A stretch of 64,000 nt of DNA, taken from NCBI GenBank assembly GCA_964187785.1, contig OZ076409.1, positions 28,212,001 through 28,276,000 on the forward strand, in the 5' to 3' direction. The notes under the pieces were generated by a model that was not told where the DNA came from, did no database searches, and worked only from the letters and a program-made list of their open reading frames with translations. The DNA is from Amphiscolops sp. MND2022 (taxonomy: Eukaryota). Positions 13,393 through 32,299 of this stretch are shown here, in pieces. Each line of letters begins with the position of its first letter. Positions within the stretch are counted from its first letter, which is position 1. The position numbers were made by a program, and so were the translations under genes.

Positions 13393-14112
13393 TGTAACGA
13401 TAAGCGCTGGCGCTTGAACCGCAACGTAGAATGGAGGAACTAGAACAGCGAATATAATCTGGGACCTAGATCTCCGCGGCCCTAGCTCATTTTCCCTCCG
13501 AAGAAGCCAGTCCCAAGGTGGGGGAACCGTCTTGTTGGAAACTCTCTGGCCTGGTCCTAGTCTGTAACTGCTAAAAGTAACGGGCATCTTGCATGTCTCA
13601 AGACCACTGCTCAATTAGCCTTTAAAAAGGGGGCTGAAAACAGGAGGATGTTGAGCCATAGTATTGGAGAATCTGATAGAATCGACATCAAAAAGGGGTA
13701 ACCATAGATGTAAATGGGCAGCTCTCGAGCATATCAATCTACTACAACAAGGAAAGCACAACAAGCACAACAATATCGGAAGTTTGAGTTTTTAGTAGGA
13801 GCGAATTGACCATGGCTTCCCAGCGCTAGCGCTCGTCACCGCACAGGACGCCGCAGGATCTTCAGGCGAGCATCTGGAACACCGGTTTCTGTTGCCTATG
13901 TAGTGTAAACGCCATAGACCAAAGATGGGCACTTCACCGTGTTCTAGGGACTGTTTTCTACGTCTTCTCTTCTCGTCGTCTCTCGCGGGGGCGATTTCTG
14001 ATTTCTGATCTGCTTTTTTGACAGGTCTTTCGTCTGGAGCATGTTTGAGTGCCACGTCAGATTTGAACGAATTTTTGCTTCGAAAATTTTGACATGGGCA
14101 GTTGCCGTTACA
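13393..14112 (-). repeat. 3' LTR (720 bp)
   Basis: Matches 31580-32299 except two substitutions seen by eye (GAAGAAGCC/GAAGGAGCC; GATAGAATC/GATAAAATC). Confidence 0.98.
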
Positions 14113-14121
14113 TCACTCCCC
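14113..14121 (-). promoter_or_regulatory. polypurine tract
   Basis: Minus strand GGGGAGTGA directly precedes the TGTAAC of the 3' LTR. Confidence 0.85.
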
Positions 14122-14883
14122 GGGCTTCTGGCTTGTCGTCCCTGGCAAGCGGCATCTGGCCTCGTCTGGAAACGGCATCGCTGAGACTGCTGGGGATCAT
14201 CATCCACACCACAGGGGACAAGGACGAGTCCTTGTTTTTCAGCAACTATTTTCGACAAATTTCGCTGTTTTTTTTCAAAGAAAATTTTACTGCCTAGTAT
14301 TTTTACAAAAAGTGCAAACGAGGTTTTAGCACCAGCTCGAGAGCTAAGGTTTTCAGTCGGTTAAAACTCGTTTGGGCAAGCAGTTTTCGCTAAAAATTCT
14401 TTTGCGACCAAGGTCAGCTAAAATTTCCTTTTCCGTGCAACTTGTCATTTACAGTTTTCGATCAATTTCGGACAACATAAAACTTCTTTTGGGAGGGCGC
14501 CGCTTCGGCTACTCCTTAGACAGTCGATAGAAGGTGCTTGAGCACCAAAACACAAAAAAAACGGCAAAAATCGTAACTAAAAGGCTAAGACTTTTTCTAG
14601 ATCATGGCAACTCAAAAACACCGCGAACGGTGCGCAACAGAAATAACAGTTTTTCTTTGGTAATAGATTCTTTTTTACTTTGTAGGCGAAGCAGCTGGGG
14701 CAGGTGCACTCTATTGACCGTACACCCAGCGCATTACTAACAGTACAATAACTAAGTAATAACTATGAACAAAAATTTGCACCATGTAAGGGTAGCACCG
14801 GCTAAAGCGATAAGTTTGAAGGCACAGTTTCGGTAGAGTTTAGAGTCTATAGGGAGCGCGAACGCTCCCATTGGCGGCAGGGT

Positions 14884-17800
14884 TTATTGGGCTGAGCTGC
14901 GTCGAGCTCGATTCTTTATGGCATCATCGGGAGTTCCTGGATTGCTGGCATCTTCCGACGCAATTGACGCTCTACGTTGAGCAGGAACCACAGTAACTAC
15001 TGTTTCCGAGTCTGACAGGTCCTCTGGGAGCGTTAAATCGGCGATTGGCTGCACCAGGATAGTGCTGGGGGTCAGTTCAGCGTCGTGTTCTCCGGTCTGG
15101 GGTTGCGATGACTGAGGACTGGCCTGTGTCGATGGTGGACTCACAGGCTCTGCCTGCAGAATATGAGTGGGCAAATCCAGAGTCACGGGCCGGTCGATGG
15201 GCTGACTTAGTGACATGGCCATTGTGGGTGCCAGCATGGTAGGCGCGAACGCCTGTTGTCTCTCGAGTTCAGCTCTACTCTCCACGGCCAAGGATATCCG
15301 CTTGGAGACCCAGCCAGGCTGACTCCAGAGCTCGCAAGCTCGCTTCCATTTGGGGAAGCTGGCAATTTTCAGCTCCAAACAATGTCCTTCCCACTCTGCG
15401 CGGGCTTCAGAGCCTAGCACAGAATTAATCTCATCGTGTTGGACGATGGACATATCCCCTGACATCGTCATCTTGGCTTGCGGTCGCCAGGCAGCTTTTC
15501 TTGGGAACGGAGTCACACGGCTCTGCAGGTTCCTCTGACGAGTCTGAGCTGCTCCTTCAATCCAGTTTGGGATTTGAGCCAATTCCATATACTGGATTTG
15601 TCGATTGAAGGCTTCAGGGGCGCGACCAACGGGTTTTGCCCTAGGCCATCCCAGTGGCTCCTTCCAGTAGTGATTTGGGAAAGTGATGCATTTGAAAGCG
15701 TACAGGGGATCTACGGGTGGACCAGCACTAATGCTGGCTCGGATCACCTTGCGTATGAACTCCTGCGACCAGGGGAATCTAAAGGGGACTCCATTCAGGC
15801 TGAGAGGTGCGGAGTACCAGTTGACTGGGCCGTATTCTCGTGGCAAAGGGCACGCTTTTCGTGTGCGGGCACGCAACAGACCCATCAAATTCTCTTCTAG
15901 TTGTTTCTCCGACTTCAAGGTGGTGTACCCGTGCGGCATCTCGCCACTCAATACAGCCTGCACGATTCGCTGATAGGTCAGTGGGGGCCGTCCTTGGAGA
16001 TAGGTGCAGAAGGAGACCATATGCACCTGTACTGTTCTCGCCAGTGGTTTGGTGGGATACCGGCACACACCGACCGCACCGAAGATTGGAGCCAGGACGG
16101 AAGCCATAACGGCCACGAAGTCCTCCACTTCGACCAGAGTCAAATCGGCGATTTGCTGGGGCATGGGGAATCCCGCCGTTTCCGCAGGGAGTTGACGCTC
16201 GGAATGGTGGAGGGGTTGCGATTGATCCACGCCTACGAACAAGCCAGAGGCGAACACTAGGGTGGAGTACAACCAATGTTGGAGGGACGCACGCATGCGT
16301 TCCAGCTGGGCGACATAATCTTGCTGGTCCTTGGAATTTAGGAGGTGGCCCCATCGAGTTAGGCTGCGTAGTTGTCCCTGCGCGAGGATCAGGTAGCTGT
16401 AGAAAGTGACTAGATCACTGGACACTACCAACTCGACTAACATAGCAAGGGGACCTGCCACAAACTTCGTCGGGCCCATTGCTAGCGCGAGCGCTAACAT
16501 CTCTCCTACAGTAGCTTCGCCGATGGTTTCCAACAATTTGTCGGTCTGCACATTGGTGAGCAAGTACTCAGAGGCTATTACGTCGATGTTCCAGCCTAGT
16601 CCGAGACTGGTACAAAAGGCTTCCAAGGGACAGTTAAGCTCTTGAGCTACCTCGGCCAGGGTCCTGTCCACGAATCTGGACTGATACCATTCGGCATACG
16701 TTATTCCGGCGGCATCTACTTCAGCCTTCAAGTTGGTCGCCTCTATAGCCACGACGTACCTCATGCCCACGGGCAACTTGACGGGTTCTATTCCCGCGGC
16801 AAACCGAATCTGGGGAATGGTCCTTTCGACCGTGCGTGTGGCAGGCCAGGTTTCAATTTCCTTCACGAGCTCTGCCAGCTCTGCTCGTACGGGAATTTCT
16901 TTGTCCTTCCGCACCAGCCAGTTGTATCGTCGGACGGCCTCTCGTTCACTCATGTTGGATGCTCGCATGACGCGATTCCCGTCCAAGTCGAAGGCCATTC
17001 GCCCCATACACATTCCATGATCGAACAGTATGGCGTCGTCGATAGTCAGTTGTGCATTTCCTGATCGTTCCACAGCGATTAGTACTCTTGACACGGCAGC
17101 AAAGAAGGCGGGGTATGACAATGCGTCGGGGCGTAGGTCTCCTCGATCAACTCGCAGATTTGGCGCGCAAATAGCAAACTCGATTCGGCGCGCTTTGCAT
17201 ACCTCAGACAGGATGTACACAAATTGCTGCAAGCTTCGTTGCCAATACATGAATCCCGGCGGGGATGCGAAGAGCGCGAGCGCTCCCAGACGACCCCGAA
17301 GGATCCCTGCTGCACGCTCCATTGCGTCTGCAACCACGTTCACTAAGGACGCCACACTCCCAGGTCTGCGGGTATCTGCCATGAGGGCATCCAGGTTGCG
17401 TAGCACCCCTTCACAAGCCATGTGGTCGATCAGATTTGTGAAGACTACACGTCGCGGGGGCGGCTCTCTTAGAGACCCTCTCAGGTTAGGGTCGTACATG
17501 ACCGCGACCATCTCGGCAACCTCAGCGAAGCGGGAGAGTGGCATTGTTAATACCAACACATCGGGCAGAAGGTTGTCGATGGGGAGATCACTCCTAAGTG
17601 TCGAGTCTACTGCCACACAATAGCGCGCACGCTGCAGGGCCGCTTTCAGAAGGGGCTTCATTGATTTGATGTTGCGAGCATAGCGGGCGTTGGCTTCCCA
17701 GGTTTCCCCTTCGTGCAACATGTACCTAGCAGGAAATTGCTCGGTGAGGTCATGCTGCAGGCGAGCCATATAATTGTTGGGTGTCGCGGGCAGTTGCTCT

Positions 17801-19164
17801 CGAGCACGCTGTTCCCAGGCTTGCTCACTCATGTCCGCATCACGGGCACGTAGCGACCGAGTTATCTGAGCCGCAATGGTGATTCTGCTCACTTCTTTCT
17901 GGTCGGCGTCAGACGGCGGTGCCCTCCTTCTGATCGCACACGTGTTCGGGTACAAACACTCTGCCGCCATCCAGATGCGTTTGCTATCGCCAGTCACCAC
18001 TGTGCCGGATACGTCATCGGACGGGGGAAGAAAGGCGGGAGGATTGTTCTCATCGATTGTCTCGGACACCTCCAAGGACATGTTGGCAGAGCCTGTGCCC
18101 GAGGGCACAGGACTCGTTTCAGGATTCGCCTCCACACTGCCGTAGCGGTTGATGGCCTCTTCCAGGGACATCTGAGGCGCGCCTACGCCTAGGTGGCCGA
18201 CGCGATATGGAGGCCTCACGACCACCACACTTTTCATCTGCGACTGGTGGGGTACATCTGCTCGCTTGTCCGGAGGGGGACGACTGGTCGGACTGTCGGT
18301 CACGGAATCATGGCGTGTAGCGACGATATTTTCCTCAGTAAGTCGCTTCCGGCCAGTTTCCTCACGGGGATAGATCATGGCGCTGGTGCTTGGTCCAGCC
18401 GTAGTTTCTGCTTCCATAGACACAGTTTCGGCTAGGGTGGTGGGTGGGGTGACGCAGCCCGAGGGCTGAGCGGCAGCTTGCAAGTAATGTGTCAATCCGG
18501 GAATCCTTTGCTCAACGGCACGAACGAAGTCAGAGGAGTTGGGGTAGTTGGCGACAGCCTGCAGGGCCACAATCACCGCTTGCTCGCTGGGACTCCGTCC
18601 AATCAGATTTAGATTAGGCACTGATGGCGGTTGGGACCCCGAGGGCTCCCGACTTGAGGCAGGTTGATTGGTAATGTTCTGCGTCGTCGTTGCCCGGGTT
18701 CCATATGGTGCCCCACAAGCAATCGAGCTAGAATGCGGCGTCGTCTGCACTGGATTTGGTGCCGGAATGGAAGGCAGCGATGGGACGTTGACGGGCATCA
18801 TACGCAGTGATGTTTCTTGTTCGAATCTGGTGCCCTGGCTGGGACCATGCACTGCGATTGATCTTTCGTCCAAGAACTGGTGAGTCAGGTCGTGCCCATC
18901 CCAGGCATTGTTGGTGCACGTCAAGGTGCGACGATAGCTTGCCACCTCCGTGGTGATTGACAAAGATGCATTTGGCAGCATTTGCATCGATTCAAGCTGG
19001 GTCAGTAGGGCGGCCACCCCAGCTACGGCTACTGGCGAAAGACCGTCCCGCAGCCTTTCTTCGACATATTGGGCCTGATTGACCCTCTGCGCTCGCGCAG
19101 ATTCCTGGGGCCTTGCACTATTAGACCCGGTTGCAGGCGCTGAATTGTTTGGGCAATGGGCCAT
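14884..19164 (-). CDS. ORF2 of the giant element, 1426 aa, with a degenerate SGNH/GDSL-hydrolase-like domain; function unknown
   Basis: Intact long ORF between pol and the PPT. Low-complexity N- and C-termini. Central YCVAVDSTLR..VLVLTMP..RRVVFTNLIDH..ALFASPPG..DLRPDALSYPAFF resembles SGNH blocks I, II, III and V. No signal peptide. Confidence 0.88.
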   Translation of the reverse strand: MAHCPNNSAPATGSNSARPQESARAQRVNQAQYVEERLRDGLSPVAVAGVAALLTQLESMQMLPNASLSITTEVASYRRTLTCTNNAWDGHDLTHQFLDERSIAVHGPSQGTRFEQETSLRMMPVNVPSLPSIPAPNPVQTTPHSSSIACGAPYGTRATTTQNITNQPASSREPSGSQPPSVPNLNLIGRSPSEQAVIVALQAVANYPNSSDFVRAVEQRIPGLTHYLQAAAQPSGCVTPPTTLAETVSMEAETTAGPSTSAMIYPREETGRKRLTEENIVATRHDSVTDSPTSRPPPDKRADVPHQSQMKSVVVVRPPYRVGHLGVGAPQMSLEEAINRYGSVEANPETSPVPSGTGSANMSLEVSETIDENNPPAFLPPSDDVSGTVVTGDSKRIWMAAECLYPNTCAIRRRAPPSDADQKEVSRITIAAQITRSLRARDADMSEQAWEQRAREQLPATPNNYMARLQHDLTEQFPARYMLHEGETWEANARYARNIKSMKPLLKAALQRARYCVAVDSTLRSDLPIDNLLPDVLVLTMPLSRFAEVAEMVAVMYDPNLRGSLREPPPRRVVFTNLIDHMACEGVLRNLDALMADTRRPGSVASLVNVVADAMERAAGILRGRLGALALFASPPGFMYWQRSLQQFVYILSEVCKARRIEFAICAPNLRVDRGDLRPDALSYPAFFAAVSRVLIAVERSGNAQLTIDDAILFDHGMCMGRMAFDLDGNRVMRASNMSEREAVRRYNWLVRKDKEIPVRAELAELVKEIETWPATRTVERTIPQIRFAAGIEPVKLPVGMRYVVAIEATNLKAEVDAAGITYAEWYQSRFVDRTLAEVAQELNCPLEAFCTSLGLGWNIDVIASEYLLTNVQTDKLLETIGEATVGEMLALALAMGPTKFVAGPLAMLVELVVSSDLVTFYSYLILAQGQLRSLTRWGHLLNSKDQQDYVAQLERMRASLQHWLYSTLVFASGLFVGVDQSQPLHHSERQLPAETAGFPMPQQIADLTLVEVEDFVAVMASVLAPIFGAVGVCRYPTKPLARTVQVHMVSFCTYLQGRPPLTYQRIVQAVLSGEMPHGYTTLKSEKQLEENLMGLLRARTRKACPLPREYGPVNWYSAPLSLNGVPFRFPWSQEFIRKVIRASISAGPPVDPLYAFKCITFPNHYWKEPLGWPRAKPVGRAPEAFNRQIQYMELAQIPNWIEGAAQTRQRNLQSRVTPFPRKAAWRPQAKMTMSGDMSIVQHDEINSVLGSEARAEWEGHCLELKIASFPKWKRACELWSQPGWVSKRISLAVESRAELERQQAFAPTMLAPTMAMSLSQPIDRPVTLDLPTHILQAEPVSPPSTQASPQSSQPQTGEHDAELTPSTILVQPIADLTLPEDLSDSETVVTVVPAQRRASIASEDASNPGTPDDAIKNRARRSSAQ

Positions 19165-19176
19165 TAATGCATAGGT

Positions 19177-19200
19177 CTAAAAAGGACCACTGTTAAACTC
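19177..19200 (-). promoter_or_regulatory. putative splice acceptor for ORF2
   Basis: Minus strand GAGTTTAACAGTGGTCCTTTTTAG|ACCTATGCATTAATG has a branch-like TTTAAC, a pyrimidine tract and AG. The ORF2 frame opens exactly after this AG. Confidence 0.55.
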
Positions 19201-19458: not shown

Positions 19459-22400
19459 CTACTTCAGCCCTATAGTTAATATTGATACATATACGCGGCT
19501 ATGCAAAACCACGTGAATACCAGTACCCTCGAACATGCTCGTTAGAGTATGGTACAGGTTAACCAACGAGAAAGCCGGTCTCTTGGGATCCAGAATCGGT
19601 AGGTGGACCCGTGTGGATCCTTTATCTATCAGGCGCTGTGTCAAGTGCGTCATGCAACGCAAGTAGTCGTCTGTCAGCAGCGGTGCGCGCTGGTTAGCAC
19701 GGACTATCAACAGGTGAATACTTTGGTTGGGGTTGGGGTTCACATCGGGCGGGATAGTGAGAATCTCGCCCACTTTAGGTCGTAAGGCAAATACATCTTC
19801 CATGCCGCACTCCCGCAGCACATATCGCAGGGCGGCAGAGTTGGTCTTTAGGTCAGCAGGGCATGCTAACACTATGTCGCCCTCGGCCTGCAAGAAATCG
19901 GACTCATCGTAAGAGACGTGTTCGGCTGAGTTCGGATACAGGGCTCCCGGGTAAACAATCTCTCGTCCGGGGCCATTATCGGGGGGCAGACACACGCGAG
20001 GGGTACGCCCTTGGACTGCAGCCAGGTCTTGCCACACTGAGCGGGGCATCGCTCGATTGTCGCTGCCGGCCTTTACCCACGCATCTAAAGTTCCCAGGGC
20101 GGCTTTGGGGAACAAGGGGATCTCGAAAGTGTGAGTCCACTCATCTAATAGTCGAATTCTGGGATGGGTGGCGAAACATGTGATTATTAGTTCCAGCCAC
20201 CACGCGAACTTCATCTTGCCTCGGTACCAGTCTATGATATGGAAGCAAAGTATTAAGTCCACAGTGGTGAGGGTCCTCAGACTCTCCAGACAGGATAACA
20301 GATTCAACGGTTCCACCAGCGCCTCCACTCGTGGAGCTGTTACCAGCAGCCACCAGTGAGGAGCCGGGCTGTATACCCCTCCTGGTTCCACCTGGACTCC
20401 ATACTTGTCGCATAACAAGTCAGCAGTGATGCATCGGACCATCTGCACAGGTTCCCTTTCAAAATTGAATGGTCCAAACGCAATATTACTAGGCACGGGG
20501 GGCAACACCGTGGGCAGGGTAAACTCCAGGCCCTTTCCATCGCTAGTCCACTCCTTAAACCTAGGACAAGGGGCCTTCGCTACCCCAGGCAGTGACAACT
20601 TCTCCAGGATAGTGTCCACAGGGTAGTCTCCGGACCGCTCTACAGCTGAGTAGGTTTTTTCGGCCCGCACCGTGAGGCGGTATACCAAGTTTTCTCTCTC
20701 TTCCGGAGGAACTCCCCGGGCTCCAATGGGAACCCTCCGGTTCTCATTCACAGCAAATAAGCAGACACAATCTCGCAGCCCGCAGGTTCCACACTTGTAG
20801 CGCGGCTGTCGCTTACTCCTTAGTTGATACCTAAGAGCAGTTGCAGATGCTTCTGTTAGCGTCTCTGCAGTTCTGGGAGCTTCCGTTTCGGCCTGGATCG
20901 CAGTTTCAGTTTCAGCTTTTCTCGGTGTTTCTTTCTTCCTCGTTCTTGCCTTCGCTCGAATCAGCCGTTTCTTCTGTGCCTTAGGTGGTCTCCCCCTCCC
21001 CCTTTTAAAAGAAGGAGCGGTCCCCGCTCCTGGCGAGGTCTCGGGAGCATCAGGCAGATCGGGCTGAACGTCGCTGTCGCTGCTGGCAGATTTGAGGGGA
21101 ATCGGAGGGGCGGTCGGCCATATGGGATAGTTACTAAGAAAGTTGGTTAGCGAGGGATTCGTCAACAAGGATGCTGAGGTTCCTGGTAACGATGTCTCTT
21201 CTTCAGAGGATATCTGCGGAGACGGTGAGCGCACGCGCTCATGGTCAGAGAACAGTTGGGGTAGTACACGGGCAGGGGATATCGACTGATCCAATGTAGT
21301 CGGAGGAGCCGCAGGCTCCACCCTATCCTCGTCAACGGGATTAGGAGGTATTGGCAACATGGCATCGGATAGTTCGTCGTCTGTACCCGAGGTGGAATAG
21401 TCAAATTGCTGATAATGCGGGCGGGAGCCGCCTGCGCGAAGCTTCGTGCGTAGTCGAGTGTCCATCCAGTGACGTCGACGTGAGGGCAAAGATGCATCGG
21501 ACGCCTCTGAAAGTAGTTGTTCGGGTTTATACGACGAGAAAGACTGGTCGTCATCAACTACGTCGACGGAACGTTCAGGTTCGGGGTCCATGAGGACCAC
21601 CACCTCACCACTGTCCGAGTGTGCAGTAGCAAGTTCAAGTGGGCCACTGTGGTGCGGTTTGAGACGCTCAAAATGAACCTTTTGACCTGTGTCTAGTACA
21701 TAGACACGACCGTCCTGAAAAACTTGTACCACTTTGTGCGGGCCTCGCCAGGCACGCATCAATTTCGGGGAACCCTTTTGCGGTACGTAGCGGCAAAAAA
21801 CCCAGACGAGCTCGCCTACTTGGTAAGCTCGCGCTTGTATAGCACGGTCGTACTTTAATTTTTGACGCAATTGGGCTTGGTGCGTATTACGCCGTACCAG
21901 GTCATGTATTTCCTGTTGGCGAGCCAGTACATGATCGACATACGCCTCATGCGACTCGAATGATTTGGCAGCAAACTCGGGATACAAGAACGTGAGAGGG
22001 ATGGCCTTCTCTACGCCACGGGTCAGCATATAGGGTGAGAAGCCAGTGGTAGCGTGCCTCGTAGAGTTGTAGGCACCCATGACCTCATCAAGACATTGGT
22101 CCCAATCGCGCATACGGCGGGAACAAAAAACTCGCAGTAGGGTCAGCAGCGTCCGATTTTGGCGCTCGACCAAGCCTTGGGTTCTCGGATGGCTAGCTGT
22201 AGAGGTTACTTTGGTAACGTGGGCTGCTTTTAGGAATTCGTTGGACACCTCGGCAGTCAAATTAGGGGCATTGTCAGACTGCATCCTAGTGGGTGTGCCA
22301 TGACGGGCGAACCACTTTTGTAACAGCAACCGAGAGGTAGTCACAGCGTCGTAGTCATGATGACTACAGGGCACTGCTTCCGCGAACTTGGAGAAATGGT

Positions 22401-25400
22401 CAATTATGACCAAGATGCCAGTGTTATTACTGTCTGAGGGGCAGATTTTCAGATGATCATATTGAACCAATTCGTTGAAGTATCCGCTTTGGATGTTCTT
22501 TAGATGGAATCGGACGTCACCAGGCTTATCCCGCACTTGTTGACAGGTGAGGCATTGGCCAACGTAACGGCCCACGCTGCGCCGAATACCAGGCCATGTG
22601 TGACGTTCTTGAATCCTAGCCACCACTTTGGAGATACCTTGATGTCCCATGGCGTCATGCGCGCGGAATAAAATCTCATGCTGGTACAGTTGTGGCATGA
22701 CGATCATGCACGGACGTTCGTGCAGGGGACGTTGGTTGGGAGGGTATTGTACGCAAAGTACACCATTCTTGTTGATAAACAGGAGGGTTTTCTTCTGGCG
22801 GTAGTAGTTGCGTGCGAACTCACGCACGTTCTCGGGAAACACGTCGTGATCAATAGATTCGTTCAGCACCAACTTTTTGAGTGCTAGCACATGAACATCA
22901 CGGTTTTGGGCTAGAACCAAATCTTTGATACCATGCACGGTGTGAGCATGTTCGTGAAGTTCAGTGTTGATATCTTTAAGAGCCATAATTGAGTCGCGCA
23001 CACCCGAGGGAGTACCTTGCAACGCCACAGGATTCGCCCCGGCAATAGCATAGACGGTACGCGAGGGAACATTTACGGCATGCGTTGGCAATAGATAATC
23101 TTCGCGTGCTTCATCAGTCACATCAATCCAATCCTCAGGGTAGTCTGGATAGGCATCCTCGTGCGGTTGCAGAGCAAGGGCAGGCGGAGGTGGCAAAGGG
23201 GCTGCGAATGCTTTCGCTTGTCTGTCCCTCCTGCTCGCTCGTTTGGTGCGGCGAAGCACGCGTAGCAATTGGTCGGGAGCCTTAGGCTCCAAGTTCTGCA
23301 GGTGCGCAGGTAACTCGGGATGGTTCGGGATGACTCGACCCTGAAGGTCGAACCATGGGGCAACAGGTAGCTTATCAAATTCGTCAGCTGAAAGAAAGTT
23401 CCAGCGTTCGCCCGCAGCTGGCTGCTGTGCAAGCTGTTTTTCGCGGCATCGGTACTCGTTGGTTCGTTTGCTCAAGCCATCGGCGTTTCGATGTTGGGTC
23501 CTTGGGCGGTGTTCCACGCGAAAGTGATATTTCTCCAGGGTCATGATCCATCGGCCGATTAATGCTTGATCCGTGGAGTAGGTTTTCAACCAGGACAAAG
23601 CTTGGTTGTCCACCCGCAGGGTGAATTTTCGGGGACATAGATAGCTGTGGTTCTTCACTATGAAATAGTAAGCGGCGAACATTTCAAGTTTGGGGGCTCC
23701 GTATTTGGCTTGTGTGGTGGTGAGCTTCTTGCTACCGTAAACTATCGGTCTCAGGCGTCGTTCACCCGGAGGACCTTGCCACTGGTGCAGGATACCCGAA
23801 ATGGCGACAGCACTAGCGTCAGTGTCCAACACAAACTCTCCTTCGGAATCAGGCTGCGCGAGCGCAGTTGCCTCGATTAGGGCTTTTTTGATCTCATTGA
23901 ATGCGGTTTGTTGCTCAGGACCCCAGGCGAAGGTGGCATTCAGTCCAGTGACGGCGTGCAGGGGTGCAACCAGCTTAGCGTGCCAAGGAATGAATTCGCG
24001 ATAATAGTTGGCAAATCCAAGGAAACTCTGCATCTCCGTCTTGTTACGGGGAATTTCCCAATCACGCAACTTGACGACGGCTTTTGGGTCGGGCTTCACT
24101 CCTTCTGCGGACACCACTCGTCCCAAATACTTGATTTCCGATTTCATGAAATCGCATTTGGCCACGCGCATTTTGAAACCGGCTTCACGGAGACATTCAA
24201 AGACTTCACGTAGACGTACCATATGGTCTTCCACAGTCTCCGTGGCAATCACGATATCATCAATGTAGGCCATGACCATGCTGCCCTCACGATTGACAAT
24301 ATTCCTTAGCGCACGCGCTATTGACCGTTGAAACGTGGCAGATGCATTGCACATACCAAATGGCATTCGCCGCCACTCAAAAAGTCCTAATTCGCAAGCA
24401 AAAGCGGTTTTGTGGCGATCCGCTTTGCGCACGGGAATTTGCCAAAAGGCCCAAGCAAGGTCTATGCTGGTATAGATCTTTGCTTTGCCTAGCCGTGCCA
24501 GGCTTTCATCGATGCGGGGCAAGGGATAAGCATCCTTAATGGTTACCTCATTTAACGGGCGGAAGTCGCAGCAAAAGCGCAACTCCCCGTTTTTCTTTTT
24601 CACCATTACAATGCCGCTCGCCCAGGGGGACAGCGAGGGCTGTATCATTCCCAGAGCTAATAGGTTCCGTACCTCCTGATTGGCACGTTCGGCCTTCTCA
24701 GGGGACATCCGGCGAGCACCTTCGCGATGCGGTACAGCCCCTGGTTCCACCTCCACGGTGTGCTTAGAGATAGTGCACCGACCGATGTCTGCTTTGTGTT
24801 TCATGAACAGCTCATCAAATTCATCGAGGAGGTTACGGAGAGACTCGCAGGCGCTAGCGCCCCACAAATCCTTGACCGCCTTGAGCTGAGATTCCGGCCC
24901 AGGAATCGGAGCCATTAGCTCTGGGTCCGTTCGTTTGCGAATCTCGCGCTCCGATAGTCCTGCCTCGCTAGGGTCAGTAGAGGACAAAAACTCAAATTCG
25001 GAAGAAGAGGTTAACTCAGAAGCAGTGGATAGATTCACTTCACTATAAATTTTATGAACAAAATTTGCACGACTGTCGTCGGCGTCAGTTTTTGTGCGGG
25101 TTGTAGTGGGAGAGTCCAAACATTGAGGTACTGCTTGGTATACTACCGTTACGGGTACTACGGTGCCCAGTTGTACACCACACCGCATGCGTTGAGGGTT
25201 GCTGGTGAGATTTATCAGGCTCACAAAGAGTGTTCCTGTCTCACTGACAGTGGCCACGCTGTCCTCTAAAAAGACGACATTGTGCAACGTAGTGTCAGAC
25301 AAAGAGGCATTGAGCGCTACGCTTTGAAATATCAGCGGCTCTAGTGTGTTGGTGACGAGCTTGGCTCTAGCCACCGCTCGTTCAAAAGGTTGCAGGACCA

Positions 25401-28400
25401 AGTCACTGTCCAAAACGACTGGAGTAGCTATTGAAGTGTCACCTACCTGTGCGTGAGCATGATGCCACACAGGCTTCACTGGTGCTCGCACCACAATCTT
25501 CATAGATGTTAGATCCACTAACACCTGGTAGGAGCGAAGAAAGTTCCGGCCAAGTAGGAAGTCTTCCACACCCATTGCGTCATCTACCACCACAAAGTTC
25601 GTTTCAAGTTCGTATCCTCCCAGCTGGAAATGGATGTGTTCTGCGAGGCCGTAGGTTTTTATTGTCTTCCCGTTGGCTGCGTATAGGTCAACTTGGTAGG
25701 GTTTAAGTACCGTTCCAGTTCGAGCTGCCACTCTGTTGAAGGCGGAAAACGTCAGTATGGAGACGCCCGAGCCAGTGTCCACCAGCCCTCGCAGCGGAAT
25801 AGGTGCTGCATGAGGCACCACGAAAGAGACCACGAGCGACGCACGCTCATCTATACGCGCTTCGCCGGTGGGCTCCTGGTGATTGATGTTATAGCATTTG
25901 AGCTCCTGGGGACCCAGACAAATGCCAGTGGGAAATACATCCACCACCACACAGGCTTCGAATTTCATGTCCACTCCATCCATTGAAGCGCAGACTGGCA
26001 CTGGGGAATACGTTGTCAGAGTCGCAGACTCTCCCGGAGCGTACCATTCTTTCGGTCGAGGCAACTCGTTTCGTTTGTAGAGGATAGATAATTCGACCCA
26101 TAGCTTCGCCAGAGTTAGCGTCGGCCTATGTGTTTGCTCAGCTGCCAGCAACAGGTGAATGGAAATCAGCGTACGTCCTTGCGGATCGAACGTTGTGGGT
26201 TCCAAGCAGGTTTGAACTTGCTTAGCACCACAAGTGAATGTCATCGGAGTGTGGAACGCAGGCGGTTCCGCTGGATGTAGCATCAACACACGGTCATCTT
26301 CCAAAGGTACGGTGTGCGCGGCGATGCCAGCTGATTCGACCTCAGCCCACCGATTGTAGGCCAACTCTTCATTGGGTTTCGGCGCATGGGAGTGCTCTCC
26401 ACATTGCACTTCCGCCTGATCAAAAAGGCCACAGCTCGCGCATTGATAGATCCCTGGATGACCTTCAAGGATACCATCGGTCGTGTCTTCCGTGGTCACC
26501 TTCACGCCCTCTGGTTCGGAGGCAGTCATCGGTTTTCGAGCCTGGTCACGATTGGGGCACTCGCGAGCAAAATGTCCGTTTTGCCCACAGTGAAAACAAG
26601 CACCTACTGGCGCTCGGACGGGAGCTGGGACAGCCGGAGCTGGGACATTTTGGGGGGGCGCCGGAGGTGGCAAGACGCCCTGCGGCATAACCATCTTGTT
26701 CGGCGGTAGTGGTGCGAAAGGATGAGGTCTAGACCTCATGGCTAATCGGGGATCATAGGGTTGTTGAGGTTGGGTAGGCCTGGGACGATTGCGTTGCAGC
26801 TGACGTGTGGTGAATCGCAAGGACTCCACGGTAGGGGGTTCGGTAAGAAAAGTTTCCGAGGCGTATACTATAGCAAGTTCACGCCTCAACACTGGATCTC
26901 GCACACCTTCCATGAAGCGTTGCAAGATTTCATAGCGTTTCGTAGTGATACTTTCTTGCGGGAACCCTTGGCTCCTGAGACCCTCTAAAGCGTCTAAGTA
27001 CTGCATCCAGTCTTCTTTTTCTTGTTGGACGCGGCTTTGGAAAGTCTGCCGCACCTGCATGCGATTTCCTCCCGCGCCAAATCGACTAGATAGCAACTCG
27101 AACACCTTCTCGGGGGTGTCACGTTCAGACTCTGCCTTGTTGATGATGTAGTTGCGAGCCTCACCTTCGAGGTGACCGATAATACTCCAGGCCCGATCTT
27201 CGGCCGAGATTTTGGTTTGGGTTCTCTTTAAGTATCGCTGCATCACTAGGATCCAGCCATCAATAGACCCGTCCTTAGAGCCTCGATACACACTGGGTTT
27301 GGTCTGAGCCAGGTCACGTCCCGCAAGTAACGGTGCTAGTTCTTTGGACATTGCTTTGGAAATGGCGGCAGTGAACCTCAATTGCTCAGGAGAAATGACT
27401 TCAGCCTCTCCTTCTTTAGGCGCCACATCATCAGTGCCGTCGTCACTGCCATGCGTAGCTCGCACTGAGAGGTTCGTCACGTCTTCTTTCCTGCGAGTGC
27501 TGCTCGCGCAAGGAGCGCCCGAGGGCATCCCGTCCTCAGCTGGCCAGTCGGCGGTCAGATACATGGAGTCCGTTCCAGAAACCATGGTAGGGGCCGTCAC
27601 ATACGCAGCTCCATCAGTCTGGGACCCTAGTGTGGCCTTAGTACAGGATAAATCAACTTCGGTAGAAGTATCTAGATAGATAGGTGACATCGGGTCCACA
27701 CCTTGGTCTCGGGTGGCACTTCGAACTATGGAGGATGTCATTTGGCTCATCGACGAGGAGTCGTGGGGCCCTCTTACCTGCACCCGTGCAGGTTTGCGCT
27801 CCACAGCAGCCATGATGGGCACAGGATCCCTGGTTCGGGTTTCAGGCGTTGTCGACTTGGAGGTGCTGGGCTTCAATACGCTCGCCAACTCGGGTTTTGT
27901 TGCCTGACTCCGGTGCGATGATTCCGTGGCCTTCATTGAATCCGCGATCGGCACACCTTCAGTGGCACCAGCTTGTCGTGGGAGGGACCTTTCGCGCCTC
28001 ATGATGTTGATAGCATTGAGCACAGTGTGCATTTGGTTACTCAAATCATTGATCTGGGTTTCCACACGAAGTTCACGGGCCATCAGAAGGTCATTCATCT
28101 CACCCATCCTGTAGCCTAGTGCATCTACGCGAGCGCTCTGCGTGTTCTGCGCGGTTCGCAGTTGATCACTGACCTGCAGACCTTCTCGCATCGTTGTCTG
28201 CAATGTTCTCATATTTTCTGCGATGGCACGGTGTTGGTCATTGCATCCAGCACGAGTGCTAGCCAGTTCAGCTAAGGCACGTTGGGTCTCGGCTTGGGCT
28301 TCCAATATTGCTGCTTTGTACACCGAAGATCGTTGGGATGATGCCACTGAACCTGCCACGCTCCTCTTACGAGGCACCTCAACTTGACGTTCACCTACAT

Positions 28401-29013
28401 TTATCATGGGTGGTCGCACTTTCTTGTGTTTGCCATAAGCACAAACTCTAGTGTTACTTCGAGTGACTCCAGTCCCTTGCGGTCTCGCACCACTCGTGTT
28501 TTCCGAGTAGGTAAGATCCTCATCCACCGTGATTTGTAGGCGAGAGCTCATTTGTTCCCTTAGGGGTGCGCGAGAGCACCCTTCCTCAGCTGCAAGTTCG
28601 TTGGTCACGTTTGAGTTGGGCCACTCTTCTTCTGCTTCATTGGCTCTTTCACGACAGGTTTCTTCGACCCATTGTTCGGTTCGACGAGAGCTTCCAGATG
28701 CAACGGAACCCTCGGAGGGAGGGACCATGGCGGCCAGTTCCTCCTTTCGTTGTTGCTCGATAGTGACTTCGTCAGACATTTCGTCTGAAAAATGCGAACC
28801 ATCCATTGTGGATCCTATGGTCACCCATGACTGCGAACTCATGTCAAGCTTTTCCAGGCCTGGTAGGACCATTACACACAATGCCAATGGCAGAGCAGGT
28901 GTCAACGATTCGGACGTAGCCTTTGAAGAAGCCTCGAAAAACGCGGGATTTGTCGAGTCGCTGTTAGCTTTAGGCTCGTCTCGGTGTGGACTTAAGAAAT
29001 TTGACTGTTTCAC
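19459..29013 (-). CDS. Gag-Pol polyprotein (first ATG at 28872, 3137 aa): capsid, CCHC, pseudo-protease + protease, dUTPase-like, RT, RNase H, integrase, AT-hook, two macrodomains
   Basis: CFHCGQNGHFAREC (~26557-26598); LVDTGSG (DTG 25771-25779) with LLGRNFL; RT YIDD (24256-24267); RNase H LDTDAS..LE..VDNQAL; integrase HDAMGH..CLTC, SDNA, VERQN, WRGPH; KRGRGRPPK (~20980-21006); TARG1-like C-terminus. Confidence 0.98.
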   Translation of the reverse strand: MKQSNFLSPHRDEPKANSDSTNPAFFEASSKATSESLTPALPLALCVMVLPGLEKLDMSSQSWVTIGSTMDGSHFSDEMSDEVTIEQQRKEELAAMVPPSEGSVASGSSRRTEQWVEETCRERANEAEEEWPNSNVTNELAAEEGCSRAPLREQMSSRLQITVDEDLTYSENTSGARPQGTGVTRSNTRVCAYGKHKKVRPPMINVGERQVEVPRKRSVAGSVASSQRSSVYKAAILEAQAETQRALAELASTRAGCNDQHRAIAENMRTLQTTMREGLQVSDQLRTAQNTQSARVDALGYRMGEMNDLLMARELRVETQINDLSNQMHTVLNAINIMRRERSLPRQAGATEGVPIADSMKATESSHRSQATKPELASVLKPSTSKSTTPETRTRDPVPIMAAVERKPARVQVRGPHDSSSMSQMTSSIVRSATRDQGVDPMSPIYLDTSTEVDLSCTKATLGSQTDGAAYVTAPTMVSGTDSMYLTADWPAEDGMPSGAPCASSTRRKEDVTNLSVRATHGSDDGTDDVAPKEGEAEVISPEQLRFTAAISKAMSKELAPLLAGRDLAQTKPSVYRGSKDGSIDGWILVMQRYLKRTQTKISAEDRAWSIIGHLEGEARNYIINKAESERDTPEKVFELLSSRFGAGGNRMQVRQTFQSRVQQEKEDWMQYLDALEGLRSQGFPQESITTKRYEILQRFMEGVRDPVLRRELAIVYASETFLTEPPTVESLRFTTRQLQRNRPRPTQPQQPYDPRLAMRSRPHPFAPLPPNKMVMPQGVLPPPAPPQNVPAPAVPAPVRAPVGACFHCGQNGHFARECPNRDQARKPMTASEPEGVKVTTEDTTDGILEGHPGIYQCASCGLFDQAEVQCGEHSHAPKPNEELAYNRWAEVESAGIAAHTVPLEDDRVLMLHPAEPPAFHTPMTFTCGAKQVQTCLEPTTFDPQGRTLISIHLLLAAEQTHRPTLTLAKLWVELSILYKRNELPRPKEWYAPGESATLTTYSPVPVCASMDGVDMKFEACVVVDVFPTGICLGPQELKCYNINHQEPTGEARIDERASLVVSFVVPHAAPIPLRGLVDTGSGVSILTFSAFNRVAARTGTVLKPYQVDLYAANGKTIKTYGLAEHIHFQLGGYELETNFVVVDDAMGVEDFLLGRNFLRSYQVLVDLTSMKIVVRAPVKPVWHHAHAQVGDTSIATPVVLDSDLVLQPFERAVARAKLVTNTLEPLIFQSVALNASLSDTTLHNVVFLEDSVATVSETGTLFVSLINLTSNPQRMRCGVQLGTVVPVTVVYQAVPQCLDSPTTTRTKTDADDSRANFVHKIYSEVNLSTASELTSSSEFEFLSSTDPSEAGLSEREIRKRTDPELMAPIPGPESQLKAVKDLWGASACESLRNLLDEFDELFMKHKADIGRCTISKHTVEVEPGAVPHREGARRMSPEKAERANQEVRNLLALGMIQPSLSPWASGIVMVKKKNGELRFCCDFRPLNEVTIKDAYPLPRIDESLARLGKAKIYTSIDLAWAFWQIPVRKADRHKTAFACELGLFEWRRMPFGMCNASATFQRSIARALRNIVNREGSMVMAYIDDIVIATETVEDHMVRLREVFECLREAGFKMRVAKCDFMKSEIKYLGRVVSAEGVKPDPKAVVKLRDWEIPRNKTEMQSFLGFANYYREFIPWHAKLVAPLHAVTGLNATFAWGPEQQTAFNEIKKALIEATALAQPDSEGEFVLDTDASAVAISGILHQWQGPPGERRLRPIVYGSKKLTTTQAKYGAPKLEMFAAYYFIVKNHSYLCPRKFTLRVDNQALSWLKTYSTDQALIGRWIMTLEKYHFRVEHRPRTQHRNADGLSKRTNEYRCREKQLAQQPAAGERWNFLSADEFDKLPVAPWFDLQGRVIPNHPELPAHLQNLEPKAPDQLLRVLRRTKRASRRDRQAKAFAAPLPPPPALALQPHEDAYPDYPEDWIDVTDEAREDYLLPTHAVNVPSRTVYAIAGANPVALQGTPSGVRDSIMALKDINTELHEHAHTVHGIKDLVLAQNRDVHVLALKKLVLNESIDHDVFPENVREFARNYYRQKKTLLFINKNGVLCVQYPPNQRPLHERPCMIVMPQLYQHEILFRAHDAMGHQGISKVVARIQERHTWPGIRRSVGRYVGQCLTCQQVRDKPGDVRFHLKNIQSGYFNELVQYDHLKICPSDSNNTGILVIIDHFSKFAEAVPCSHHDYDAVTTSRLLLQKWFARHGTPTRMQSDNAPNLTAEVSNEFLKAAHVTKVTSTASHPRTQGLVERQNRTLLTLLRVFCSRRMRDWDQCLDEVMGAYNSTRHATTGFSPYMLTRGVEKAIPLTFLYPEFAAKSFESHEAYVDHVLARQQEIHDLVRRNTHQAQLRQKLKYDRAIQARAYQVGELVWVFCRYVPQKGSPKLMRAWRGPHKVVQVFQDGRVYVLDTGQKVHFERLKPHHSGPLELATAHSDSGEVVVLMDPEPERSVDVVDDDQSFSSYKPEQLLSEASDASLPSRRRHWMDTRLRTKLRAGGSRPHYQQFDYSTSGTDDELSDAMLPIPPNPVDEDRVEPAAPPTTLDQSISPARVLPQLFSDHERVRSPSPQISSEEETSLPGTSASLLTNPSLTNFLSNYPIWPTAPPIPLKSASSDSDVQPDLPDAPETSPGAGTAPSFKRGRGRPPKAQKKRLIRAKARTRKKETPRKAETETAIQAETEAPRTAETLTEASATALRYQLRSKRQPRYKCGTCGLRDCVCLFAVNENRRVPIGARGVPPEERENLVYRLTVRAEKTYSAVERSGDYPVDTILEKLSLPGVAKAPCPRFKEWTSDGKGLEFTLPTVLPPVPSNIAFGPFNFEREPVQMVRCITADLLCDKYGVQVEPGGVYSPAPHWWLLVTAPRVEALVEPLNLLSCLESLRTLTTVDLILCFHIIDWYRGKMKFAWWLELIITCFATHPRIRLLDEWTHTFEIPLFPKAALGTLDAWVKAGSDNRAMPRSVWQDLAAVQGRTPRVCLPPDNGPGREIVYPGALYPNSAEHVSYDESDFLQAEGDIVLACPADLKTNSAALRYVLRECGMEDVFALRPKVGEILTIPPDVNPNPNQSIHLLIVRANQRAPLLTDDYLRCMTHLTQRLIDKGSTRVHLPILDPKRPAFSLVNLYHTLTSMFEGTGIHVVLHSRVYVSILTIGLK

Positions 29014-30099
29014 AACGTCCCAAATTTCTCGAAATACGTTTTAAGGCTCGTAGGCTGTTCAAATTTACACAGCGCTTTTCCACAAGCACACTGGGCCAGA
29101 AAATCAACCTGGTTCGGGGCAAAACGTCTCCGGTCACTCACAGGAAGAATTTCAAAGATTTTTTGGGTTTTCCAAAATTTGCACTACAACACTCAAGAGG
29201 CTCGTGTGTGCGCTGGAGGCGTTGTATCAAGCCCAAAATTGACCAGCAGATCTTAGGTACGTGTAGGTTTACGAAAATAAACACAGTTTTGAGCTGCGCC
29301 CCTTCTACACAGTTTCGCCTAGGTACAGACGTGCGGTACCACTATGTACCAAAATACACTGTTTTTTCACGTCTTTTTCAAGATTGCGGTCCACTGAAAA
29401 AAGCTAGCAAGCTCAAATTCTCTGCAACGACGTAGGAACTAGCACAGGTTACGATGATGGGCTGCAATATGGCCCCACCCGTCGGCTAAGGTGCCCGGGT
29501 TACTTGGAAAAATTAAGAAAAAACTGCCTTTTTGCACGCCTTTTTGGGTGCCACGTTTTTCCTATTTTCTCAACAAGTATCACACAGATCGGCACCAAAC
29601 TTGGTAGTTCATGCCAGTGGGCACCTACAATGCCGCTGATATGGTCGAATTGAAGCGCAAGCGCTTATTTGAAGTCCCGACCCACTATGTACGTTGTACA
29701 CGAAAAAACACTGTTTTTGACGACTTTTTTCACAAATTGACCAAGAGGATCACCTCAGAAAGTAATACGGCGGGCAAAATGGGACCAACGTGTCGCCCCA
29801 CTATCCGTAGCACTGGGATAAACCCTCAATTGGTTGTGCCCGTTAGGTATAAGGCACTGACAGTCTTGCAGTTTTGGATTTTTTCGGCTTTTTCAGCTTC
29901 TCTGGAGTCAAAACGTCAGAGAGCTTTTCTCGACTTTGGGGAACGATACGCCCACCAAAATTTCGGCACTAACGTTACTTTTTGTGGTGGTTACGAAAAT
30001 GCAACCACTTTTTGGCTAGGGTTCAGGAATCGATGACCCGACCCTAGCTCAGAGACAGTCCGGTTTTGTGGAAAATTGATCAGATTCAGTGCGTTTTTC

Positions 30100-30369
30100 C
30101 ACTTTTCTCAGCACTGAATGGGAGTTTTTGCATGCGGTTTTCACCACAATGCGTAAATTTTATTGTAAAAACAGAAAATGAGAGCGCGAAAGCTCCTAGC
30201 TAACAAAAAGACAGAGTGCCCAAGGGGTTTTAATTGCGTACTCAGACACTCCTGAAGCTGACTAAAATTCAAGGTTTTTCAACTTTTCTCAACACTGAAA
30301 AGGAGTTTTTGCACGCGGCTTTCACCACAATGCACTATCTTTATTGCCAGAACGGAAAATAAGAGCGTT
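30100..30369. repeat. diverged ~90 bp direct repeat in the 5' leader of the giant element
   Basis: ACTTTTCTCA.CACTGAA..GGAGTTTTTGCA.GCGG.TTTCACCACAATGC occurs at ~30101 and ~30282. Confidence 0.85.
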
Positions 30370-31547
30370 CAAACTCGCTCTGGTCCACTAAGCTTCACCC
30401 TCAAGACTTTCAGACAATGCACTTTCTATGCCTAAAAACACCTTAAATTACCGTTTTTTTGCACCGTGTCAGCCCCAGGCTGCCTGAATCCGCTGTAAAA
30501 GTTACAGTTAGTGTCCTGTGGGTCTACTACGCTTGACAAAACACCGTACACTGCTTTTTCATACTTCTACACCAGTGTACGCCTGTATTTCTGGGTGCCA
30601 TTTTGGTCAAAATTCCACTTTTTTGCAATTTTCTGGTGCTAGACCGGCACTTTTATCACAACCAAAGGCAAAATTACGGCCTTCTGTGCCTCGTACTAGC
30701 TTTCTCGAGCCTTGCAGCTGCTTTTTACAACACTTTTCACGAAGTTTTCCTGGCTCCGTTGAGCACAAGTGCTCAAAACCACGAAAAACACGAAAAAAAC
30801 GCAAAATCAGGGTTTTTTCACGCAAGTGCTATCTTTTTTGCAGAAAAGCACTTCGTAGGGTGTCGTTACATCTACAACAAAACATTACTGACCTGCACCA
30901 ACGATTCCCCGTCGAAAAAGGTGCATTTTCAAAATTTTCACCGACCATGAGCCATTTGAGCGACGCGTCCGGTCACAGGGGGTGCACCTTCACCACGCTT
31001 TTTATCCACATCCAGACCAGATAGAGACACGCGGGTTGGACCATTAGCATCGTCTGCAATTGCACTTGCTGTCCACCAAAAACCATACCTCTAGGACGTC
31101 TCCACGAGAAATGGGAGTAGGAAGTAGGCAACACACAATTTGACTTCCCCTTCGCCTCGCTGGTTCATGGTCAGCCATCCACCAGTCACCCTCTTGCATG
31201 GCATAAAATGGCTGAAAATAGCTTGCAAAACCTGTTAAACACCCGTAGCCACGTGCTACGGTCTTCAGCACCTGCAAAAAGATACCCGCTGATGGGCACA
31301 CAACACATCACACAAAAATATCGATTTCCTTCCAAAACACCTAAAAATACCATTTTCGCACCTGAAAACGTGATTTTTTCGGGTTTTCTCTGGTTCAACG
31401 CTCCTCCCAGTTCCAGTAGAATGTCACACGACTAAAAAAGGGCAAAACTCTGCTTCTCTCTCCTTCTTCAGAGTCGAAACGGGCTTGGCGCTGATTACCA
31501 GGGGGCCAGATCTTTTAAAAACCGCTAGGGAAAGCTTCCCAAGACGA

Positions 31548-31564
31548 TCCCTCTGTGGTCGCCA
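31548..31564 (-). promoter_or_regulatory. primer binding site, tRNA-Arg-like
   Basis: Minus strand TGGCGACCACAGAGGGA is complementary to a tRNA 3' end (..TCCCTCTGTGGTCGCCA) and lies 15 nt inside the 5' LTR boundary. Confidence 0.8.
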
Positions 31565-31579
31565 AAAAATGAGGTTCTA

Positions 31580-32299
31580 TGTAACGATAAGCGCTGGCGC
31601 TTGAACCGCAACGTAGAATGGAGGAACTAGAACAGCGAATATAATCTGGGACCTAGATCTCCGCGGCCCTAGCTCATTTTCCCTCCGAAGGAGCCAGTCC
31701 CAAGGTGGGGGAACCGTCTTGTTGGAAACTCTCTGGCCTGGTCCTAGTCTGTAACTGCTAAAAGTAACGGGCATCTTGCATGTCTCAAGACCACTGCTCA
31801 ATTAGCCTTTAAAAAGGGGGCTGAAAACAGGAGGATGTTGAGCCATAGTATTGGAGAATCTGATAAAATCGACATCAAAAAGGGGTAACCATAGATGTAA
31901 ATGGGCAGCTCTCGAGCATATCAATCTACTACAACAAGGAAAGCACAACAAGCACAACAATATCGGAAGTTTGAGTTTTTAGTAGGAGCGAATTGACCAT
32001 GGCTTCCCAGCGCTAGCGCTCGTCACCGCACAGGACGCCGCAGGATCTTCAGGCGAGCATCTGGAACACCGGTTTCTGTTGCCTATGTAGTGTAAACGCC
32101 ATAGACCAAAGATGGGCACTTCACCGTGTTCTAGGGACTGTTTTCTACGTCTTCTCTTCTCGTCGTCTCTCGCGGGGGCGATTTCTGATTTCTGATCTGC
32201 TTTTTTGACAGGTCTTTCGTCTGGAGCATGTTTGAGTGCCACGTCAGATTTGAACGAATTTTTGCTTCGAAAATTTTGACATGGGCAGTTGCCGTTACA
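31580..32299 (-). repeat. 5' LTR (720 bp)
   Basis: TGTAAC...GTTACA, near-identical to 13393-14112, adjacent to the PBS. Confidence 0.98.

Follow-up and report, generated by a model that had tools for sequence, protein, structure and literature searches.

The 64,000-nt stretch of acoel contig OZ076409.1 analysed here (the window; all coordinates below are positions in it) carries, on its minus strand at 13393–32299, a complete long terminal repeat (LTR) retrotransposon of 18,907 bp. We consider it highly likely that, in its acoel host, this element belongs to an undescribed lineage of very large Ty3/Gypsy (Metaviridae) retrotransposons, and that it has amplified recently and is probably active to this day. 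Its strongest departure from known Gypsy elements is a 3-bp target-site duplication (TSD) combined with LTR ends of the form TG..CA. Neither this TSD nor the displaced primer binding site (PBS) described below had been remarked upon in the initial annotation, which had proposed a fully intact, two-gene Gypsy element of 18.9 kb; that description was borne out, both open reading frames (ORFs) being open and all four enzymes of the polyprotein possessing their catalytic motifs.

The two LTRs (5′ LTR, 31580–32299; 3′ LTR, 13393–14112) are 720 bp each and mismatch at two positions, so that the 718/720 identity first counted by eye stands; their termini are TGTAAC..GTTACA, with a 7-bp terminal inverted repeat. 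Between them lies an internal region of 17.5 kb which reads, along the minus strand, as a leader of 2,707 nt (measured from the LTR as far as the first ATG, at 28872, in line with the ∼2.7 kb originally noted), ORF1, a 295-nt gap, ORF2 and a 771-nt 3′ region. Inward of the PBS the leader (28873–31546) has no ORF of more than 170 aa and holds a 103-nt direct repeat (30093–30195 and 30274–30376). ORF1 (19459–28872) specifies a single Gag-Pol of 3,137 aa with no frameshift, its frame being open from 19459 to 29040 (3,193 aa stop to stop), whilst ORF2 (14884–19164; frame open 14884–19176) specifies 1,426 aa counted from its ATG; both had been correctly described as free of stops. A polypurine tract (PPT), together with three bases, occupies 14113–14124, directly ahead of the 3′ LTR. 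The earlier label 'giant' suits the total length, but the internal region falls short of the >20 kb cut-off for that term given in the available text of one review (PMC6431247).

The features listed in the ICTV Metaviridae profile (PMC7879559) are found in the element: two LTRs around an internal region (3 to >15 kb in the profile); an 18-nt tRNA primer site and a PPT, although that site is set 15 nt inward of the LTR; gag, with capsid (CA) and CCHC knuckle, followed by protease (PR), reverse transcriptase (RT), RNase H (RH) and integrase (IN), the CA match being weak (E 0.005); and a GPY/F module after the integrase core that aligns with that of Ty3. Tandem and rearranged copies do exist in the genome, as would suit the view that the 18.9-kb unit is a chimera, a nested insertion or an assembly artefact and its 3-bp match a boundary error. 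We give that view next to no credence, however, as LTR pairs ∼18.19 kb apart recur across many chromosomes, both ORFs can be aligned in ten other copies, the same layout is seen in sister families of 18.9–19.7 kb, and the PPT and the spacer ahead of the PBS fix the boundaries from inside.

Target-site duplication and primer binding site

The window copy is flanked on both sides by CGA (32300–32302 at its 5′ side and 13390–13392 at its 3′ side), and a TSD of this length recurs in related copies. It was found in 14 of the 16 LTR pairs from the family of the window element, in 7/7 from family B and in 9/9 from family C (RT–IN identity to the window element's family ∼81 % and ∼63 %, respectively), or 30/32 in total. 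Loci whose partner had not been fetched were left out of this count, as was L118/L117, which belongs to a tandem array. A 4-bp repeat was seen in one of the 32 pairs, at a T run, and repeats of 5–6 bp in none, whilst mismatched flank pairs, serving as a control, agreed over 3 bp in 37 of 992 cases (3.7 %). Three of three solo LTRs and one copy (L084) of a fourth family likewise have a 3-bp TSD. The 4–6-bp TSD usual for Ty3/Gypsy elements, a trait outside the ICTV profile, is therefore not what these pairs display.

Several observations weigh against this reading. Two of the 32 pairs lack a 3-bp TSD: L002/L006, where one mismatch spoils the repeat, and L025/L012, which has the most diverged LTRs and is probably recombinant. 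L078 has no TSD either, and its 5′ TG is also missing. Moreover, the pairs scored are the best-scoring, youngest copies of three families in one genome, and metagenome loci of relatives held no LTR pair, so that the TSD data come from one host. As to that host, another, unrelated LTR element of the window (36755–40727, minus strand) has a 5-bp TSD and a primer site adjoining its LTR; because of this single control element, we do not regard the 3-bp TSD as imposed by the host. The control is small and degenerate, with a PPT, a primer site directly at the LTR end and 187-nt LTRs that are 93 % alike and end in ATA, not CA.

The flanks of 30 insertions showed a weak symmetric target preference, with A six bases upstream in 21/30 and A or T at the matching downstream position in 26/30. 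Of 24 sequences parsed, those with alanine in the integrase DNA motif all belong to the three families with 3-bp TSDs or to a single sister family that is unplaced; as Ty3 integrase likewise lacks glycine at that position, the association of Ala with a 3-bp TSD is a weak lead only.

The second unusual property concerns priming. The 18 bases at 31547–31564 (minus strand) are a perfect complement of the 3′ end plus CCA of host tRNA-Arg(TCG), matching the host genes exactly, and this PBS begins 15 nt past the CA of the LTR, behind a spacer (31565–31579) with a T tract at its end. Across 30 loci of the wider clade considered below, the spacer measured 15 nt in 13, 16 nt in 14, and 11, 14 and 18 nt in one each, again with a T tract at the end. 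In the standard account of reverse transcription the end of the tRNA primer sets the end of the linear cDNA, which in retroviruses and Ty3 lies ∼2 nt beyond the CA; with the offset seen here, the linear cDNA would therefore carry the whole spacer beyond the CA. The displaced site thus predicts an unusual end-processing step, and we think it fairly probable that priming 15 nt inside gives rise to a linear cDNA with a 15-nt extension past the U5 CA, which would be trimmed before strand transfer.

A search for LTR end-to-end junctions yielded five matches against three in the control, a count that is uninformative by itself. Two of the five represent one locus, L245, in which an LTR preceded by a PPT still has exactly the 16 nt of spacer, with a fold-back right at the boundary of the primer, an arrangement that fits an unprocessed cDNA end. 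It must be set against this that L245 is a single case, and that a broken tandem array, such arrays being present in the genome, could yield it as well. The locus L247 (LTR–spacer–part PBS–TGA–LTR) could be either a circle junction or a microhomology deletion and was not counted, L248 and L249 are ordinary insertions, and RNA folding of the U5–PBS region was not significant (z −1.66). Genes for tRNA-Arg(TCG), the primer tRNA of the clade, form a tandem array with ∼174-bp spacing at G000:C9 ∼57.54–57.58 Mb and beyond (L032–L034), and the pattern of this gene has 258 matches genome-wide.

The Gag-Pol polyprotein and ORF2

All domains of the two ORFs are on the minus strand. In ORF1, a capsid-like region (26869–27267), whose weak match is to PNMA, is followed by a zinc knuckle of the form CX2CX4HX4C (26551–26601), an aspartic protease with a DTG motif (25534–25797), an RT core with YIDD (24121–24603), RNase H (23527–23925) and an integrase (21661–22695) with HHCC, D-D-E and a GPY/F-type module that reads GPH here and GPF in relatives. 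Among solved structures, the best relative of the RT was Ty3 RT/RH (E 7e-68), with the next entry at 1e-47 and the murine leukaemia virus (MLV) type at 5e-37; the integrase, too, was closest to Ty3.

To this core are added a number of further regions, which are supported to different degrees. Ahead of the protease lie 125 aa (25885–26259), conserved throughout the aligned clade members, that form a putative pseudo-protease with a retropepsin-like layout and no DTG. This domain had been proposed in the initial annotation; its layout and its clade-wide conservation (dN/dS ∼0.07) speak for it, whilst comparison with the protease profile lends weak support (hhalign P 28 %, E 6e-4; controls P ≤ 1 %). 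Because P0134 and P0136, which lie outside the clade, also have two protease-like domains, such doubling is not unique to it. The conserved domain between protease and RT (25135–25443) is possibly dUTPase-like, as suggested by its position and by a weak match of the relative P0098 to Herpes_ORF11 (E 0.033).

Downstream of the integrase are an AT-hook-like GRP motif (20977–21003) that three other families also retain, a conserved four-cysteine motif (20761–20793) and two macrodomain-like repeats. The C-terminal repeat (19486–19923), which from the look of its motifs we take, presumptively, to be OARD1/TARG1-like, is homologous to regions of P0094–P0096 and P0099 that match Pfam Macro at E 6e-5 to 1e-3, matches that are near or below the cut-off and are linked to the window domain by profile. 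The first repeat (20116–20523) is degenerate and resembles the second (hhalign P 87.9 %, E 3e-6). As such, the earlier suggestion of post-integrase macrodomains finds backing for the last through its relatives and for the first through its similarity to the last, their own sequences being without a match. Indeed, it counts against the labels given to these accessory regions that neither Pfam nor the PDB offered a sequence match for the macro, pseudo-protease or dUTPase-like region of the window element itself, a PDB sequence search with the macro region having returned nothing relevant. The accessory domains are nevertheless under purifying selection, with dN/dS of 0.03–0.09 for the macro and pseudo-protease regions and for the SGNH and helical regions of ORF2, values that are rough given that dS is near saturation. 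Tentatively, the macrodomains and the AT-hook carried on the integrase might tether it to chromatin or to ADP-ribosylated host proteins, and the pseudo-protease might regulate processing of the polyprotein.

Relatives of ORF2 numbered 22 by word search and 442 by HMMER, with none of them named; the 150 listed are mostly fragments. After 29 misplaced rows out of 109 had been dropped from the alignment, residues 481–1300 were folded with AlphaFold from 83 sequences (mean pLDDT 65), and the model contains a confident alpha/beta domain (17053–17622), for which SGNH/GDSL proteins made up almost the whole of the 50 best structural matches (Z 5.6–8.2). The SGNH-like ORF2 that had been proposed from the sequence is thus supported at the level of the predicted fold, with the reservation that by the tool's own scale these Z-scores are middling. 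The homologues retain the Ser of block I, have NxxDH in the place of GxND and, in nearly all acoel-type sequences, show Arg where block V would have its His. With blocks assigned by eye, the catalytic S-G-N-H set is therefore incomplete, both the block III (oxyanion) Asn and the block V His being replaced. The OSK domain of Drosophila Oskar, which is catalytically dead and binds RNA, matches the ORF2 domain with Z 6.8 (rmsd 4.0, 161 aligned residues, 6 % identity); it ties with many ordinary esterases in the match list and is put forward as a structural analogue.

Further along ORF2 is a helical domain (16057–16779) with pLDDT 90+ over ∼150 aa and a conserved FxxGP, followed by a helix–turn–helix (HTH)-like stretch. 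Folded alone, it reached pLDDT 77, with a core of 90+. Its best Z among 48,161 chains was 4.1 and no viral fold was matched at E ≤ 0.001, by which a new fold is not yet proven, and its last 75 residues gave small HTH-type matches (Z ∼3). A Foldseek search with the complete ORF2 model gave no match at E ≤ 0.001, and the ESM Atlas held no usable match for the SGNH region or for the helical region of a relative. Compared with family E, the SGNH and helical domains have dN/dS of ∼0.04 each. ORF2 accordingly offers a conserved, confidently predicted domain without a structural match and, possibly, an enzyme-to-pseudoenzyme series across hosts.

Shortly upstream of the ORF2 ATG there is a pyrimidine-AG acceptor-like site in the window family and in four of five other families inspected, family C having no pyrimidine-AG close to the ATG; spliced-leader (SL) trans-splicing has been reported, in the portion of the source available, for S. 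roscoffensis. We would put about even weight on the proposal that a spliced or trans-spliced subgenomic RNA is the source of ORF2 and that ORF2 serves as an intracellular accessory protein, in which an SGNH domain derived from an active esterase would now be a non-catalytic binding module like Oskar OSK, joined to an HTH-like helical region that binds nucleic acid or host silencing factors. Ancestry in an active esterase is suggested because the S-G-N-H motifs are intact in distant relatives.

ORF2 sits in the env position but is not env-like, and its identification as an env is unsupported: there is no Pfam env/fusion match, and the helical domain, to which the viral-fold test applied (the N- and C-terminal parts of ORF2 did not fold reliably), matched no viral fold. 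The same findings bear on a different proposal, namely that ORF2 substitutes for an envelope as an active or rewired lipid-acting esterase that aids membrane crossing and renders the element transmissible from cell to cell. Besides the env position, this proposal could draw on the GDSL ORF3s of bdelloid elements, which have been suggested to aid membrane passage (available text of PMC5408684 and PMC6431247), on the strong conservation of the block I Ser and NxxDH, such that another His could complete the triad, on the motifs retained in distant relatives and on one hydrophobic 19-mer (Kyte–Doolittle, KD, 2.28). We nonetheless judge it unlikely, given the Arg in block V and the lost oxyanion Asn, and given that the hydrophobic stretch is weaker in a sister family (1.73) and falls inside the region matching small HTH folds. 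An intracellular accessory protein thus remains our preferred reading of ORF2.

Copies, relatives and neighbouring sequences

Among named proteins, the mitochondrial COX1 of the host is closest to those of the acoels Symsagittifera roscoffensis (75 %, 888 bits) and Baltalimania ylvae (73 %, 815 bits), with other named animals reaching 727 bits at most, which makes the host an acoel distinct from S. roscoffensis. In the host genome (1.07 Gb) an LTR search returned 2,356 candidates, and the 40 that were scored are ≥ 99 % identical and mostly paired ∼18.19 kb apart. The exact LTR–spacer–PBS junction of the window element's family occurs 432 times, corresponding to at least 432 copies, and a relaxed, clade-wide pattern of the 5′ junction 2,984 times (control 0). 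Not all of these are full length: among 20 clade junctions sampled, ORF2 was found in 7 and the partner LTR in 5 within the 10–20-kb stretch fetched. Within the family of the window element 11 of 16 LTR pairs are identical, both ORFs are without stops or frameshifts in 5 of 10 other copies, and synonymous differences outnumber replacements in both ORFs in all 10; the copies examined were the best-scoring ones, so young copies are over-represented. These copy numbers and LTR identities agree with the young, multicopy family that had been postulated, which, judging from its sequences, has recently amplified and is probably still active.

Clade 5′ junctions spaced at ∼14.05-kb steps across G000:C1:34,035,026–34,099,401 form a head-to-tail array, and in L070 and L118 the 5′ LTR is likewise preceded by a PPT. 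Structure-based LTR finders commonly default to TSDs of ≥ 4 bp and elements shorter than ∼15 kb, so that in acoel genomes this abundant clade may escape such programs or be trimmed wrongly by them. In those genomes LTR elements are plentiful, making up half of the genome in S. roscoffensis, and Gypsy elements account for 28 % in the acoel P. naikaiensis, according to the parts of the sources available.

In an RT–RH–IN tree of 57 sequences, the clade of the element has a support of 1.0 and consists entirely of unnamed proteins, with three named homologues falling outside. The relatives of similar layout occur in other marine assemblies. Metagenome contigs L166, L170, L171, L183 and L193 each encode Pol followed by an ORF of 1,300–1,800 aa, four of them with gag in a separate frame. 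In these five downstream ORFs the S, G, N and H motifs are retained, two of the five match Pfam GDSL (E 0.01 and 0.22), and FxxGP follows at 370–392 residues downstream, versus 382 in the window ORF2; from this shared layout we infer that they are homologous to the acoel ORF2. In addition, ORF2 homologues are present at L199 (E 1e-23) and in P0517 (E 1e-13), which clustered with P0107, a relative of P0098; the P0098 family itself is absent from the host genome (best 49 %). A PDB sequence search with the distant SGNH profile returned nothing relevant, and a scan of viral contigs no relative. Two points weigh against the placement and the homology: the tree held unnamed or database-named homologues, with no curated references for the named Gypsy clades, and the link between the metagenome ORFs and ORF2 is no better than shuffles by HMM and reaches only P 40 %, E 3e-4 by hhalign.

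Taken at its widest, and as a speculation that we think rather less likely than not, the picture would be one of a new, widespread marine Metaviridae clade, making up a few percent of the genome, in which a 3-bp stagger evolved independently of the Troyka elements discussed below and a U5 overhang of 11–18 nt, versus ∼2 nt, is removed. An esterase would have been captured once at the base of the clade and, in acoels, become an Oskar-like, non-catalytic RNA-binding protein with a new-fold helical domain handling host silencing.

Other clade members and relatives differ in their accessory content. The clade members P0102 and P0104 have a Pol of 3,700–3,900 aa with superfamily-1 helicase Pfam domains, another large accessory capture; the relative P0091 joins a truncated integrase to an SGNH domain (Pfam GDSL E 9e-7) with seemingly intact catalytic motifs; and the ORFs downstream in L166 and L171 have a weak IBR/RING-like match (E 7e-4 and 6e-3) that is absent from the acoel ORF2.

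Elsewhere in the window, 385–5567 (plus strand) contains broken ORFs, one of which matches the Pfam Monjiviricetes fusion glycoprotein (E 1.6e-12), and by its sequence appears to be what is left of another retroelement, one with an envelope, or of an endogenous viral element. Decayed retroelement fragments are found on the minus strand at 59647–64000 (integrase, E 1e-13) and 48823–50358 (RT, E 4e-18). The former contains a sequence repeated at a distance of 837 bp (59944/60781; 222 bases identical from this point on), and the genome holds 1,204 candidates for relatives of it. Perfect inverted repeats of 47 and 74 nt, MITE- or foldback-like, lie at 8478–8571 and 9838–9994.

Comparison with known systems

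Our literature searches, which covered the text of papers mostly free of subscription, found no Gypsy element with a 3-bp TSD besides Troyka; nor did they bring up a Gypsy that carries a macrodomain, or an account of the Gypsy elements of acoels at the level of families. PMC13524379 makes no mention of acoels, TSDs, macro or SGNH, and the available portions of PMC3601003 and PMC6451197 add nothing on acoel Gypsy novelty. The domain set, which had not been recognised from any described clade, was in keeping with this found nowhere in the literature searched, but its parts do have precedents (GDSL/SGNH ORF3 and dUTPase in Vesta/Juno, in the available text). It is conceivable that the family, its TSD and its ORF2 have been recorded before, perhaps under a Gypsy consensus number in Repbase or Dfam, and that the annotation alone is new: acoel genomes are LTR-rich, repeat libraries have been built for them, and Repbase, Dfam, GyDB or paper supplements could hold it. 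We consider this rather improbable, as the Repbase-based Troyka paper (PMC12440569, available portion) ascribes 4–6-bp TSDs to other elements and lists no xenacoelomorph host, no description was found in the literature searches, and the proteins of the clade are all without names.

The bdelloid Vesta/Juno elements (PMC5408684, as far as available) share with the window element TG..CA LTRs, an SGNH/GDSL ORF replacing env and a domain between protease and RT. Their interposed domain is, however, a dUTPase, their GDSL residues are intact, their LTRs measure 159–551 bp, and no macrodomain, pseudo-protease or long helical domain is described for them in that text; the likeness is one of description, not of a tree. 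Planarian Burro/GYPSM1 (available text of PMC6431247) is similar in being a very large, high-copy Gypsy with a huge multi-domain polyprotein in which a dUTPase-like domain separates PR from RT, and differs in an internal region of up to 25 kb and in its MATH, BIR, BCL2, ankyrin and env-like domains, none of which was found in the window element. With Ty3 the element has in common the LTRs, the 18-nt tRNA primer site, the PPT, the order gag-PR-RT-RH-IN, the CCHC knuckle and the GPY/F module. Unlike Ty3, it has a 3-bp TSD, a primer site 11–18 nt inside, a 17.5-kb internal region, tandem protease-like domains, post-integrase macrodomains and a 1,426-aa, non-env ORF2.

The comparison that bears most directly on the TSD is with Troyka (Kuafuorterviruses; PMC12440569 and PMC11673190, as available), which is reported to make 3-bp TSDs where other LTR retrotransposons make 4–6 bp (Kojima 2025, PMC12440569). 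Both systems share this TSD, the order of Pol domains, aquatic animal hosts and the lack of env, and the primer site of the window element starts with TGGCG, the five bases ending most Troyka LTRs; on these grounds the element could be a large, aberrant Troyka with a 3-bp TSD by descent. That is extremely unlikely, and we reject membership. Troyka ends in CG..CG, whereas all LTRs parsed here end in TG..CA; its zinc finger is CX2CX8-10HX4C, in place of the canonical CX2CX4HX4C; it is without the GPF/Y motif, where the element has a GPY/F module; its RT motif is IADD, VADD or LADD (PMC11673190), against YIDD; its LTRs of 100–400 bp and internal region of ≤ 7.7 kb compare with 720 bp and 17.5 kb; and neither a second ORF nor an acoel host is reported for it in those texts. 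Very probably, then, the window element would move by ordinary retrotransposition from one Gag-Pol polyprotein, its integrase cutting the target with a 3-bp stagger by convergence with Troyka. The printed rule that takes a 3-bp TSD as the mark of Troyka is thereby broken by a TG..CA Gypsy element, which offers a second, independent case in which to study how integrases set the length of the stagger.

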